Assembly (NCBI GenBank): GCA_013817545.1
Contig: JACDCM010000001.1
Coordinates: forward strand, 1 to 52,422
DNA from: Gemmatimonadaceae bacterium
GTDB taxonomy: Bacteria > Gemmatimonadota > Gemmatimonadetes > Gemmatimonadales > Gemmatimonadaceae
Reading direction: 5' to 3'
Length of the DNA stretch: 52,422 bases
The stretch's first letter is position 1; the number at the start of each line of letters is the position of its first letter. The notes under the pieces are model-generated. The model was given only the letters and a program-made list of their open reading frames with translations. It was not told the DNA's origin and searched no databases. This document shows, piece by piece, positions 38,803-42,497 of the stretch. The position numbers and the translations under genes were made by a program.

Positions 38803-39128
38803 CAGGCCTCTTCGGCCGCGTGCGTATCTCGGTTACCAACGGGCTTATATGTAGGACTACAGCATTTTGACGTCGCACAGAAACACAGCTAAAATTATAC
38901 AGAAGCTGTGCCTTTTCCTCCGGAGTCTTCGCCCTGATGACACCGCGCCGTAAACGGACGATCGCTGGCTCTCCCGCGGTAAAGCAATCACGACGGGCCC
39001 CGAACGCCGGGGATACGGCACTGTATAAGCGCCGGGTTGCGGAGGGCCTCGGCGGTCTTGTTTCGTACGGGGCATCAGCGGGTGTTTTTGCCCCGACAGG
39101 ACGGCACGACGACTGGACCCGCAAAAAC

Positions 39129-39302
39129 ATGGATATGGATCAGAACAAGCTCGATGCCGCCAAGAAGATCCTTGGTGTGAGAACCGAGACCGACGCCGTT
39201 GATGCGGCGCTCGACCTCGTGCTGTTCCATAGCGAGGTGCGCGCCGGCATCGACCGCATGGTGGCCGCTGGGGGGATCGGCGACGTCTATGAGCGCGGGT
39301 AG
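39129..39302 (+). CDS. vapB: Type II antitoxin, VapB family (57 aa)
   Basis: MDMDQNKLDAAKKILGVRTETDAVDAALDLVLF resembles the VapB-type antitoxin N-terminus. The stop is 3 nt before the PIN-domain gene. Confidence 0.6.
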   Translation: MDMDQNKLDAAKKILGVRTETDAVDAALDLVLFHSEVRAGIDRMVAAGGIGDVYERG

Positions 39303-39305
39303 GTC

Positions 39306-39739
39306 ATGCCGAAGTACGCGCTCGATATCAATGTGTATATCGATGCATTCAGGAATGAAGGAAAGGCCGCGGAGCTGAAGAGTTTCTCGCGGCCTTTCTG
39401 CCATTTACCTATCTCAACGCAATCGTCATTATGGAACTACGCGCTGGAGCACGCACGCGGCGCCAGGCGGCTGCGCTCGAGATGAGCGTCATCGCGCCCT
39501 TTGCTCGGCGGCGGCGCGTCTTCGCGCCATCAGCTGGCGCGTTTCAGGAATGCGGTCGTGTGCTCGCGGACGTGGCAGCGGATGGTCTGACCGTGGATAG
39601 TAGACGGTCGCTGATCAGCGACGTCCTACTCGCCGCTTCCTGCAAAGAGGTTGGTGTAACGTTGGTAACTCACGATGCGGACTACCGCGTGATCGGACGC
39701 CGGCTCAAGGGATTTGGCTTCGTAAAGCCATTCCCCTGA
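39306..39739 (+). pseudogene. vapC: PIN-domain toxin VapC, disrupted by a frameshift
   Basis: ATG 39306 gives MPKYALDINVYIDAFRNEGKAAEL (first acidic residue D7), then runs into a stop. The rest (EEFLAAFLPFTYLNAIVIMELRAGAR...SDVLLAASC...LVTHDADY...) is in the -1 frame, open from 39359 to 39739. The frames join near 39375-39380. Confidence 0.7.
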
Positions 39740-39791
39740 AATCGAAGGCATCGCGTGCCGGAGCGGGACCGATCACGCTTCGTGAACGCTA

Positions 39792-40031
39792 CTACCCCCG
39801 ATCACTCCGCTTCCGCTTTGGCACCCCCTCCTCCCGATCACCCGGCGTTCCTCGCGCCACGATTCCCCAGATTACGCAAAAAACTCCCAGCGTGAGAAAA
39901 AGATGAACCCATCCTGGCCCCTCGAAAGCGAACGTAGCCACCGCCCATCCAATCAGCATAACCACACCAGCAGGGATGGCTGACTTCTCGATGTAACGTT
40001 CTCGTTCGCTGCGCGTCTCTCTAGTGTTCAT
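39792..40031 (-). CDS. Small membrane protein (two TM helices)
   Basis: A 79 aa ORF: IPAGVVMLIGWAVATFAF and VHLFLTLGVFCVIWGIVA flanked by charged termini. I recognise no family. Confidence 0.4.
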   Translation of the reverse strand: MNTRETRSERERYIEKSAIPAGVVMLIGWAVATFAFEGPGWVHLFLTLGVFCVIWGIVARGTPGDREEGVPKRKRSDRG

Positions 40032-40035
40032 GTGA

Positions 40036-40064
40036 TTGACTCACCTCTGAGCGATATCTAAATT
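40036..40064 (+). promoter_or_regulatory. Sigma70-type promoter candidate (TTGACT-N17-TAAATT)
   Basis: The -35 TTGACT is at 40036-40041, followed by a 17-nt spacer and the -10 TAAATT at 40059-40064. The predicted start near 40071 is just 5' of the long-range helix. Confidence 0.5.
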
Positions 40065-40070
40065 GCATTC

Positions 40071-40272
40071 CAGTTGGGAACGAAGAGCCTTAATTTTTGA
40101 GCCAACAAGTCCACCGGGTGGGTTCGACAAACCATATTGACGTCATGCCCCAGTGCGGGGAAGGCGGAAGGTGTGGTGAGGACCTCATACATTCGACTGG
40201 GCTTCAAAAAAACCTCTTCGTTCCTTCTTTTTCGGGGGCCCCGCCGCAAGGCGGGGCTCTCGTGTTTTCTGC
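40071..40272 (+). ncRNA. Unclassified structured RNA candidate (riboswitch-like leader of folE, or an independent 6S-like sRNA)
   Basis: A perfect 11-bp long-range helix joins 40077-40087 and 40214-40224. It is extended by 7+3+4+4 further base pairs. An apical hairpin CCCC/GGGG sits at 40148-40160. A terminator hairpin sits at 40238-40257 and is followed by a U-run. Confidence 0.4.
40235..40272 (+). terminator. Intrinsic terminator/attenuator candidate upstream of folE
   Basis: An 8-bp GC stem, GCCCCGCC and GGCGGGGC, closes a GCAA tetraloop (40238-40257). It is extendable by G-U and G-C pairs. CGTGTTTTCT follows. Confidence 0.5.
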
Positions 40273-40352
40273 CACAAGCCGACCGACTCAGCGATCGAAC
40301 AAGTTAGATTCCCACCGCAATCGCTACAAGCACCACAGTGAAAGGGACGACG

Positions 40353-41084
40353 ATGACAGATGCCAAAATGAAGTACGGCCGGGACCCCGAAGGAGATGGT
40401 TCCAACGCGTCCGAAGCTGACCCGCCCGCGAAAGGAATTGTGGCGCGCCGCCGAACGTCGAGCGAGATCGCGTCACCCACCGCTGGTTGGGGGCTCGACC
40501 TCGACGACGCCCCGGTTCGCGACGCCGAATTCGAGGATGTCGTCCGTCGCATGTTGGAGCTCGTGGGGGAAGATCCCGATCGGGAAGGACTTCTGCGAAC
40601 TCCACAGCGCGTTGCGAACGCCCTCACCTGGCTCACGCGCGGCTATGAGACCGATGTCAAGGACGTTGTTGGCAACGCGATATTCGAAGAGACTCATGAG
40701 AACATGGTTCTTGTGCGCGACATCGACCTGTATTCGCTCTGCGAGCATCACATGCTGCCATTCTTCGGCAGAGCTCACGTCGCGTACATCCCGGACGGCA
40801 AGATCGTGGGCTTGTCCAAACTGCCCCGAATAGTCGATGTCTTCGCTCGCAGGCTCCAGGTCCAGGAGCGCCTTACCGAGCAAATCGCGCAGGCAATACA
40901 GGATGTTCTTCAGCCGCGCGGCGTCGGTGTGGTAATCGAGGCGAACCATCTCTGCATGATGATGCGCGGCGTAGAGAAGCAAAACTCCAGAACCATCACG
41001 TCGGCGCTTCGCGGCGCATTCCGGACCGATGCGAAGACTCGCGAGGAGTTTCTCCATCTCGCGCACAACTCGTCCATGCGGTGA
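40353..41084 (+). CDS. folE: GTP cyclohydrolase I (FolE type I)
   Basis: [55 protein letters not shown] and HLCMMMRGV. The ATG at 40353 is preferred. The ORF is open from GTG 40338. An N-terminal extension of about 55 aa precedes the conserved core. Confidence 0.93.
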
Positions 41085-41794
41085 TGGGAGGGTTGGAGGG
41101 GCGGAGCGCAGTCGTTACCGGAGCATCGCGAGGTATCGGCCTCGCGACTGCGCGCGCGCTCGCCGACGCTGGTGCGCGCGTCGTGATGCTGGCGCGCGGA
41201 GCGGACGCGCTTCGTGAACGCGCCGCCGAAATCGGAGCATCGGCGGTTGACCTGCCGTGCGACGTCGCCGACCAGACCGCCATCGTGCGCGCCGCGCAAC
41301 ATATTCTGACCGAGCTCGGCGGCGCGCCCGATATTCTGGTCAACAATGCCGGCCTGTTCATGCTCGGCAAAATCGATGCGATTTCGCAAGCTGACTTTAC
41401 CGCCTCGGTCGAGGTGAATCTCATTGCGCCTTTCGTGCTCGTCAGAGCCTTTCTTCCGGCCATGCGCGAGCGCGGGAGCGGCCATCTCATCACGGTCGGC
41501 TCGATCGCCGACAGACAGATCTTTCCCGAGAACGCGGCTTATGCCGCGAGCAAGTTCGGAGTGCGCGCCCTGCATGAAGTCGTGCGGGCCGAGCTTCGCG
41601 GCACGGGCATTCGGGCCACGCTGGTTTCGCCAGGACCAACGGACACACCGCTGTGGGATCCTATGCATGCGCGCGCCGATCTTGCGCCGCGCACGGCCAT
41701 GCTATCCGCCGAAGCGACGGCCGACGCGATCATGTACGCGGTGACGCGCCCCGCGACTGTCAATGTCGATGAGCTGCGCCTCACTAGATCCTAG
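41081..41794 (+). CDS. Short-chain dehydrogenase/reductase (SDR)
   Basis: Cofactor motif [27 protein letters not shown], plus NNAG and the catalytic YAASK. ATGA overlap with the folE stop. Confidence 0.88.
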
Positions 41795-41822
41795 TTCGAA
41801 GTCCGCCATCCGCGTCTGAACG

Positions 41823-42497
41823 ATGCACGTTGATCTGCTCGAGTTTCTTCGCTGCGTGAGGCCTCACGAACCGAGCTGGCTCGTTGCGACGGTGGATCGC
41901 GTCGAGGAACGTGACATTTTGTTAGGCCGCCTTGGCTGTCCCGTATGTGGCACCGAGTATTCGATAGATAGGGGCGTCGCGGATTTTAGAGGCGATGCGA
42001 GCCAAAGCGCTACCCGCGCGGCAGCCACTTCACCCATCTCACCGTACATTGATCCGCCCGCGACCAACGATCTCGCCTTACGCGCCGCCGCTCTTCTCGA
42101 TCTCACCACGCCAGGTGGTTTTGTGCTACTGGCTGGAGCCTGGAGCGTGGCTGCATTCGAGTTGGTCGCACTCCTGGATAGCGTCCACGCACTGGTCCTG
42201 AATCCCGCAACGCATGTCGCTTCTGGGTACGGTGTCTCAGTCGTATTGTGCGACGATGACGTCCCGATTCGGCCAGGCTCCTCGCGAGGCGCGGCGCTGG
42301 ACGCCAGGCATTCAACCCCCGAATGGATCGCTGAAACCACTGCGGCAGTCCGGGCTCACGGAAGGATAGTGGCGCATGCGGATGCCCAAATTCCCGGCGA
42401 TGTGACCGTTCTTGCCCGCGATGCGCGCAACTGGGTAGCGGAAACAACTCGGGCGTCCGCGAGCATTGTTCAGATCACTCGCACCCGCCCGGCTTAA
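41823..42497 (+). CDS. Hypothetical protein with an N-terminal Trm112-like zinc-ribbon segment
   Basis: LLEFLRCV...GRLGCPVCGTEYSIDRGVADF resembles the Trm112/DUF343 fold. I do not recognise the C-terminal ~150 aa. Confidence 0.4.
   Translation: MHVDLLEFLRCVRPHEPSWLVATVDRVEERDILLGRLGCPVCGTEYSIDRGVADFRGDASQSATRAAATSPISPYIDPPATNDLALRAAALLDLTTPGGFVLLAGAWSVAAFELVALLDSVHALVLNPATHVASGYGVSVVLCDDDVPIRPGSSRGAALDARHSTPEWIAETTAAVRAHGRIVAHADAQIPGDVTVLARDARNWVAETTRASASIVQITRTRPA

Follow-up and report, generated by a model that had tools for sequence, protein, structure and literature searches.

6S RNA, a small open-promoter mimic that blocks RNA polymerase, is described as nearly universal, and its standard Rfam model, RF00013, is also the model used in genome-annotation pipelines. 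A 6S RNA is defined as a rod of approximately 160–200 nucleotides (nt) whose irregular closing and apical stems are separated by a mostly unpaired central bubble with G-C pairs on its flanks (PMC8876501, PMC4064990), and in proteobacteria and some other groups its gene stands upstream of ygfA, which encodes 5-formyl-tetrahydrofolate (THF) cyclo-ligase (PMC4064990; PMC9130861). In E. coli, fau/ygfA lies directly downstream of the 6S gene, ssrS, on the same strand. Here we consider a 150-nt rod-shaped RNA encoded upstream of folE, the gene for GTP cyclohydrolase I, on contig JACDCM010000001.1 of a Gemmatimonadaceae bacterium (assembly GCA_013817545.1); we refer to the whole analysed stretch of 52,422 nt as the window, and all coordinates are positions within it unless otherwise noted. 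We conclude that this RNA is likely to be a divergent 6S (ssrS-type) gene.

The likeness to E. coli 6S (ssrS; RF00013) extends from the overall shape to the placement of the gene. Each RNA is a rod whose closing and apical stems flank a central bubble. In both, the bubble is bordered by UGAGCC(G/A)A(U/C)A on its 5′ edge and by GG(G)(C)UUCAA on its 3′ edge, the apical arm contains GCC...GGAAGC, and models match in both directions. Each gene is also closely followed, in the same orientation, by folate- or pterin-related genes: fau/ygfA in E. coli, and here a cluster encoding a queD-type synthase (PTPS), folE and an SDR reductase. The two differ in that the E. coli rod measures 183 nt against 150 nt here, where the arms are shorter, in the strong intrinsic terminator that here follows directly after the rod, and in the linked gene, which here is not ygfA. 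Hsu et al. 1985, as cited in PMC8414754, are said to have found that the 3′ end of E. coli 6S arises by processing and that ssrS is co-transcribed with ygfA.

Two other kinds of described RNA invite comparison. Ms1 RNA is, like the element studied here, a 6S-shaped rod that the Rfam 6S model misses and that was found by structure and synteny (PMC9130861), but Ms1 binds the polymerase core and occurs in Actinobacteria only, whereas the Gemmatimonadota element keeps the 6S sequence blocks and has ssrS as its reciprocal best match. With the THF-II riboswitch (folE motif) and other folate, purine and preQ1 riboswitches the element shares a position upstream of folE and a terminator that follows it; unlike them, it is much larger and rod-shaped, has a terminator that does not compete with the rest of the structure, and is often parted from folE by a gene on the opposite strand.

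A conserved rod-shaped RNA with its own promoter and terminator

The promoter, the rod (40076–40225) and the intrinsic terminator all fall within 40036–40270 on the forward strand and are arranged as follows.

40036–40064, forward strand: sigma-70-type promoter (–35 element TTGACT at 40036–40041, 17-nt spacer, –10 element TAAATT at 40059–40064)
40076–40087, forward strand: 5′ strand of the closing stem P1, GGGAACGAAGAG, paired with 40214–40225 in the minimum-energy fold
40094–40103, forward strand: 5′ strand of P2, UUUUUGAGCC, adjoining the bubble and pairing with 40200–40210
40104–40117, forward strand: 5′ strand of the central bubble, AACAAGUCCACCGG (14 nt)
40118–40188, forward strand: apical (internal) arm, made up of helices P3, P4 and P5
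40118–40125 with 40180–40188, forward strand: P3, GUGGGUUC with GGACC-U-CAU
40131–40138 with 40170–40177, forward strand: P4, ACCAUAUU with GGUGUGGU
40141–40166, forward strand: P5, CGUC (40141–40144) with GGCG (40163–40166), U40146 with A40161, and CCCC (40148–40151) with GGGG (40157–40160), closed by the loop AGUGC
40189–40199, forward strand: 3′ strand of the central bubble, ACAUUCGACUG (11 nt), unpaired in the family model
40200–40225, forward strand: 3′ strands of P2 (GGC-U-UCAAAAA, 40200–40210) and of P1 (CUCUUCGUUCCU, 40214–40225)
40233–40270, forward strand: intrinsic terminator, a 13-pair G+C-rich stem (40233–40262) with a GCAA loop, followed by TGTTTTCT

This anatomy of promoter, rod-like RNA and terminator had been correctly recognized in an earlier sequence-only reading of the window, which took the element for a candidate riboswitch or small RNA upstream of folE. 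The near-consensus promoter named there is the sole sigma-70-like match in the 1.3 kb from 39500 to 40800, where 0.3 would be expected, and 73 of 104 homologues carry its pattern (TTGA[CT]-N16-19-TAnnnT) at the corresponding position, compared with 0.2 expected from shuffles. The homologous –10 elements mostly end 6–16 nt before P1, and in the window transcription would start near 40071, 5 nt before the closing stem. At the other end, a terminator hairpin of –15 kcal/mol or better (median –27) stands approximately 4 nt past the rod in all 101 members with sufficient downstream sequence and is followed by a T tail averaging 3.8 T per 8 nt (1.7 expected), while the sequence of the stem varies from member to member. 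The GCAA loop and U-run of the terminator had been noted before; its stem, then read as 8 base pairs at 40238–40257, in fact extends to 13 pairs, and the distance from its end to the folE ATG (40353) is approximately 90 nt, close to the 80 nt first estimated. Conservation of both promoter and terminator, together with the lack of competing structures, indicates a self-contained gene rather than an attenuator; its primary transcript of approximately 200 nt would begin near 40071, contain the 150-nt rod, and end near 40270 at the strong intrinsic terminator, whose hairpin may or may not be retained in the mature RNA.

The forward strand of 40070–40275 folds at –89.5 kcal/mol, compared with –68.6 ± 4.4 kcal/mol for dinucleotide shuffles (z = –4.76; none of 200 shuffles folds as well), whereas the z-score for the reverse strand is –2.15. 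The rod and the terminator hairpin coexist in the predicted minimum-energy structure. Approximately 60% of the rod is paired (92 of 150 nt). The outer helices that had been read from the sequence reappear in the predicted fold: the core of P1 joins GGAACGAAGAG (40077–40087) to CTCTTCGTTCC (40214–40224) and is extended by a G40076-U40225 pair, and P2 is composed of TTTTTGA (40094–40100) with TCAAAAA (40204–40210) and of GCC (40101–40103) with GGC (40200–40202), leaving U40203 bulged. Also present, as first reported, are the CCCC/GGGG apical hairpin at 40148–40160 and the palindrome TGACGTCA at 40138–40145. The two innermost helices of the sequence-only reading fared differently: AGTC (40108–40111) with GACT (40195–40198) and CACC (40112–40115) with GGTG (40175–40178) are indeed complementary in the window, but as conserved structure they do not hold up, with 53.3% of cells paired across 25 homologues compared with 53.2% in shuffles and no covariation. 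Moreover, CACC/GGTG competes with P4 (ACCAUAUU/GGUGUGGU), a helix that is both predicted for the window sequence and covarying across homologues. Since pairing across the centre is at the level of shuffles, the centre is an unpaired bubble.

To collect homologues we searched the folE loci of species-representative genomes and, to avoid anchoring on folE, scanned metagenome contigs in a gene-blind manner with a pattern derived from the RNA alone. The element is present in 20 of 80 folE loci by nhmmer and in 24 by our covariance model R1; the metagenome scan matched at least 120 stretches, from which 80 loci were taken, and all 80 of those listed proved to be true members (78–150 bits, one copy each). 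The resulting set of at least 104 homologues (24 beside folE in genomes and 80 among the metagenome matches listed) comes from Gemmatimonadota genomes and soil metagenomes, with scores of 61–150 bits and one element per locus. Every one of the 24 folE-locus carriers belongs to the Gemmatimonadota (Gemmatimonadales, Longimicrobiales) or is unclassified, and each holds a single copy. The element lies on the folE strand in 23 of these 24 loci; the exception, L024, carries it at 2121–2281 of that locus on the strand opposite to folE. Within the window the RNA is likewise single copy (147 bits), the next matches being hairpin-sized and below 18 bits, and the loci examined gave no sign of a second paralogue (6S-2). 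A search of 4 kb upstream with model R1 found no copy in seven Gemmatimonadota folE loci (L010, L012, L014, L017, L020, L023 and L041); the genomes concerned must either lack the RNA or carry it at another place.

Covariation across these homologues bears out four of the five proposed helices; the fifth, P4, also covaries but is paired in only 57–63% of cells. A covariance model was built from the fold of the window sequence and the homologues were realigned to it, giving model-fitted alignments of 25 and 80 sequences; the outer stem is misaligned by MAFFT, and RNAalifold on the raw MAFFT alignment therefore misses it. Paired cells make up 86.7% (25 sequences) and 86.9% (80 sequences) of the model-fitted alignments, compared with 74.9% and 78.3% after column shuffling (no shuffle among 500 reaches the observed level) and 46–60% in slid controls, and 33 and 30 of the 46 pairs, respectively, have changed on both sides. 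Because alignments fitted to a model favour that model, we recounted the pairs on a plain MAFFT alignment that was not fitted to structure, where 80.5% of cells are paired compared with 74.4% in shuffles, again above all 500.

Among individual helices, P1 shows compensatory changes at all 12 of its pairs, with 94–95% of cells paired, and its frequent G-U pairs place the RNA on the forward strand, since on the opposite strand they would be C-A mismatches. The G-C, C-G and C-G pairs of P2 beside the bubble are invariant (25/25 and 77/77 sequences), and P2 covaries at one position (alignment column 25; UA/AU/CG). P3 has compensatory changes at 6–7 of 7 pairs and presents mostly G-C pairs to the bubble (44–50 of 77). 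In P5, 94–95% of cells are paired, with a CG/UA swap at the base. Outside the changing pairs, GGGCUUC on the 3′ side of P2 is invariant or almost so across all members. Upstream of folE there is a genuine structured RNA, and its conservation is strong.

Resemblance to 6S RNA

At Rfam gathering thresholds nothing relevant matches in the window or in 18 related loci, and 19 folE loci of other phyla return tRNAs only, in line with the earlier failure to place the element in a known family. Under a permissive threshold, however, RF00013 aligns over its full length (model positions 1–187) with 40075–40227 at 21.0 bits (E = 0.031). This is the top score over the element, and its E-value is the lowest, tied with a match to the terminator. 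The same model matches the same element on the same strand in relatives, over its full length in L031 (28.9 bits) and L100 (19.5 bits) and over positions 33–154 of 187 in L116 (23.4 bits). No family other than 6S recurs across the whole element in the permissive scans. We note in passing that the remaining sub-threshold matches appear to be due to chance: F6, Bp1_162, BjrC68 and CC0196 fall on the terminator, as short G+C-rich hairpin matches on either strand, whalefall-1 is a short G+C-rich match on the apical hairpin, and rnk_pseudo is isolated, occurring in one locus.

The correspondence with 6S can be followed block by block. The Rfam 6S blocks C-GA-CC-A, GCC, GGAAG-C and GG-UC-A are matched in order, the first by UUGAGCCAACA at the 5′ edge of the bubble and the last by GGGCUUCAA at the 3′ edge. 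The counterparts here of the most conserved 6S positions are UGAGCC(A/G)A(C/U)A, GCC...GGAAGGC and GGGCUUCAA. For the 5′ strand of P2, the aligned sequence is CuGAgCC in the Rfam 6S consensus and CUGAGCC in E. coli ssrS. In the apical arm, the conserved GCC and GGAAgC of the Rfam model correspond to CAUGCCC and GGGAAGGC, and the GGGCUUC region has its equivalents in GGuUCaA (Rfam 6S) and GGGUUCAA (ssrS). Many family members contain the 10-mer UGAGCCGAUA, which is identical in E. coli 6S. The sequence blocks and the conserved G-C pairs flanking the bubble accompany the expected 6S architecture of closing stem, central bubble and apical stem, with a rod of 150 nt and approximately 200 nt from the inferred start to the terminator.

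Recognition also works in the reverse direction. When searched against the annotated E. coli ssrS, model R1 gives its top match there both in 1.7 kb and in 50 kb of surrounding sequence (14.3 bits), and model R2, built from 98 sequences, scores 21.2 bits (E of approximately 0.003), the top of 50 kb on both strands, the next match scoring 10 bits. The matches of both models run the full length of ssrS on the correct strand. The remark in the sequence-only reading that size and rod shape were compatible with a 6S-like RNA is the part of it that best fits these data: the end-to-end sub-threshold RF00013 alignment, the reciprocal match to ssrS and the conserved bubble. Since the RF00013 scores stay below the gathering threshold, we put the element forward as an RNA that would work in the manner of 6S and is very likely its homologue, and not as a member of RF00013.

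Several observations weigh against the 6S assignment. Every RF00013 score (19.5–29 bits) is far under the gathering score of 46.4, and most members have no reportable 6S match in larger scans. The reciprocal score is modest (21 bits), its E-values are rough, and it refers to one reference 6S. At 150 nt, the rod without its terminator hairpin is short for a 6S RNA, and its arms are shorter than those of E. coli 6S. P4 shows compensatory changes at 7–8 of its 8 pairs, but length variation in this region leaves only 57–63% of its cells paired. Copy number was one per locus in 98 of 98 loci of approximately 1–14.6 kb, and a canonical 6S gene may lie elsewhere in the genome. The near-universal placement upstream of pterin genes on the same strand would also be expected of a cis-regulatory leader. 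Finally, in every member the assignment rests on sequence and structure.

Some of these same observations would suit a distinct class of RNA, either one that binds polymerase with another partner, as Ms1 does with the core enzyme, or an unrelated structured RNA that has converged on the 6S form. Such a reading would account for the Rfam 6S scores all lying under threshold, for the shorter arms, for the dedicated intrinsic terminator, and for a pterin neighbourhood unlike the described 6S syntenies (PMC9130861). Nevertheless, we regard it as unlikely. The resemblance goes beyond shape: specific 6S blocks recur in unchanged order and occupy equivalent places in the structure. In 100 kb of searched strand, the margin separating E. 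coli ssrS from the next match of the family model is 11 bits, and Ms1-type RNAs have been described in Actinobacteria only (PMC9130861).

On the 6S assignment, the element is a new divergent branch of a known RNA class, not a new RNA class. The literature we searched, outside of which lay the large surveys (Wehner et al. 2014, Barrick et al. 2005), held no mention of 6S RNA together with Gemmatimonadetes or Gemmatimonas, and an earlier survey may already have predicted a Gemmatimonadetes 6S.

Linkage to pterin genes

Downstream of the terminator, the window carries the following genes.

40353–41084, forward strand: folE (GTP cyclohydrolase I), first gene of the linked pterin cluster
41081–41794, after folE: SDR gene
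41823–42497, after the SDR gene: conserved open reading frame whose N-terminus is weakly Trm112-like

The usual downstream set (40353–42497 in the window, and loci L082–L161) comprises a PTPS/queD-type synthase, folE, an SDR reductase and the conserved Trm112-like open reading frame, and could represent a tetrahydrobiopterin-like pathway. Among the matches listed, 64 RNA-anchored loci have at least 700 nt of downstream sequence; PTPS (queD-type), folE or SDR genes follow on the same strand in 59 of them, and pterin genes come directly after the RNA in 41. This linkage holds across the Gemmatimonadales and the Longimicrobiales even where the upstream genes differ. In 18 of the 59 loci, and in 3 more where the contig ends, a gene of the Na/Ca-exchanger family (Pfam Na_Ca_ex) on the opposite strand stands between the RNA and the pterin genes (21/64), and in these loci the RNA, promoter and terminator are unchanged. 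The intervening gene converges on the RNA terminator, which may therefore act in both directions. In some loci (L084, L121, L122 and L141) the order is RNA, PTPS, SDR without folE in between, indicating that the linkage is to the pterin cluster and not to folE specifically.

These data bear directly on the headline proposal of the sequence-only reading, a riboswitch for folE. In general form, this would be a cis-acting leader that responds to a metabolite (a pterin, a folate or a purine) by regulating how far transcription reads through the terminator into the PTPS–folE–SDR genes. The same-strand linkage (59 of 64 loci, 41 of them direct), its persistence across both orders despite differing upstream genes, and the terminator that stands between the RNA and the pterin genes are all what such a leader would predict. 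Where the opposite-strand Na_Ca_ex gene intervenes, however, the RNA and the pterin genes do not share a transcription unit, so that attenuation in cis is impossible at those loci, and in L024 the RNA and folE are on opposite strands. The terminator, present in 101 of 101 members, lies outside the rod and forms together with it in the minimum-energy fold instead of competing with it. An alternative pairing had been suggested between CCCCGC of the terminator and GCGGGG of the apical region, but a perfect complement of at least 6 nt occurs in 28 of 101 members, compared with 21.6 expected from shuffled terminator halves, so this pairing is at chance level and no antiterminator is conserved. Across 39950–40420 no Rfam riboswitch family (THF, THF-II/folE motif, ZTP, preQ1) matches at gathering thresholds or at E-values up to 10. 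As the conserved blocks and the two-way model matches favour 6S, we consider a riboswitch very unlikely.

A trans-acting base-pairing small RNA or a small protein gene (open reading frames 40097–40420 and 40137–40307) is extremely improbable: typical small RNA genes do have their own promoter and terminator, and open reading frames of 56–107 codons overlap the region, but most of the rod is paired and its conserved single-stranded stretch is a 6S-type bubble, those frames cross the terminator into folE in other frames, and the compensatory helix substitutions together with indels that are not multiples of three lead us to reject a coding reading.

For a divergent 6S RNA, the neighbourhood raises the question of why 6S genes should be attached to folate and pterin genes. 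No fau/ygfA homologue was found in any fetched locus using the E. coli Fau protein as a tblastn query, a search of limited sensitivity. One idea, which we put forward tentatively and regard as doubtful, is that the attachment is functional rather than historical and reflects a recurrent coupling of a growth-phase polymerase regulator with pterin and one-carbon metabolism. A possible route for such coupling would be regulated read-through of the 6S terminator or shared control of the promoter; a bolder version would give the RNA a second, cis-regulatory role on the adjacent pterin genes.

Some further details of these loci are worth recording. In E. coli K-12 (L202, 3031000–3080999), ygfZ, encoding a folate-binding protein, and gcvTHP lie within 15 kb of ssrS, which bears on the association between 6S and folate genes. 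The intervening Na_Ca_ex gene encodes a membrane protein of approximately 400 amino acids and is seen in L002, L013, L018 and L019 as well as in 21 metagenome loci (e.g., L082, L083 and L088). The PTPS gene that many relatives have between the RNA and folE is missing from the window and from L106, a relative with 98% identity to it. The closest named homologues of the window folE are from Gemmatimonadaceae; its product has an N-terminal extension of approximately 55–60 residues (40353–40530) ahead of the GTP cyclohydrolase I domain, which begins at residue 61, and the length of the extension varies among relatives.

Central bubble and a proposed mechanism of release

If the RNA works like 6S, the central bubble would be the site at which it binds RNA polymerase and templates a short product RNA. 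The 3′ strand of the bubble differs among clades in sequence and length. On the 5′ strand, C40106 aligns with U44 of E. coli 6S, the position at which the product RNA starts there. By analogy, once nucleotides return, polymerase would use the 5′ bubble strand together with P2 as the template for a short product that starts opposite C40106 and begins 5′-GUUGGCUCAAAAA. P2 would then be the counterpart of the 6S "downstream helix", and synthesis of the product would unwind it. The freed GGGCUU (40199–40204) could pair with AAGUCC (40107–40112), collapsing the bubble and releasing the polymerase. Such a release by a "central bubble collapse helix" has been proposed for B. subtilis 6S-1 and Aquifex 6S (PMC8876501). 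The logic is the same here, where the 3′ strand of P2, once opened, could reach the distal part of the 5′ bubble strand and pair with it, the difference from 6S-1 and Aquifex aeolicus 6S being that here the collapse helix is predicted in silico only.

Two kinds of calculation bear on this prediction. AAGUCC and GGGCUU are pairable in 83% of cells, compared with 82% in shuffles and 15–58% in slid controls; covariation does not appear for this helix because its 3′ strand is invariant. When the 5′ strand of P2 is kept from pairing during refolding, 18 of 25 members form a collapse helix of 5 base pairs or more, whereas after shuffling of the 5′ bubble strand the figure is 13%. An extended 3′-bubble hairpin is the outcome of refolding in 2 of 25 members. 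Longimicrobiales-type members are predicted to form the collapse helix through a different, more distal segment (UUGAAGCC/GGCUUCAA), giving two sequence solutions in two clades. These foldings are supportive of a 6S-type release, not conclusive for it.

Implications

The low RF00013 scores mean that Gemmatimonadota, a common soil phylum, are expected to appear 6S-less when annotated with that model. The 98-sequence alignment and the model built from it would permit phylum-wide annotation and could extend the 6S seed. The linkage to PTPS–folE–SDR genes would provide a second, independent case of the long-noted and unexplained association between 6S and ygfA (folate), and one that is easier to test. 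More broadly, what presented itself as a candidate novel riboswitch is better explained as a representative of a known RNA class.

Other features upstream of the RNA

The region immediately upstream of the RNA differs between the window and its relatives. From the GNAT acetyltransferase gene to the RNA, the distance is approximately 1270 nt in the window (38803–40072), compared with approximately 200–350 nt in relatives. The extra stretch holds a VapBC-like toxin–antitoxin pair (38937–39739) and a small membrane open reading frame on the minus strand (39792–40031), which starts 5 nt from the –35 element of the RNA. The vapC gene is apparently split by a frameshift into parts in different frames (39306–39485 and 39431–39739), and its C-terminal part (39431–39739) gives a weak match to the NCBIfam VapC profile (positions 40–121 of 125). 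The extra stretch looks like an insertion.

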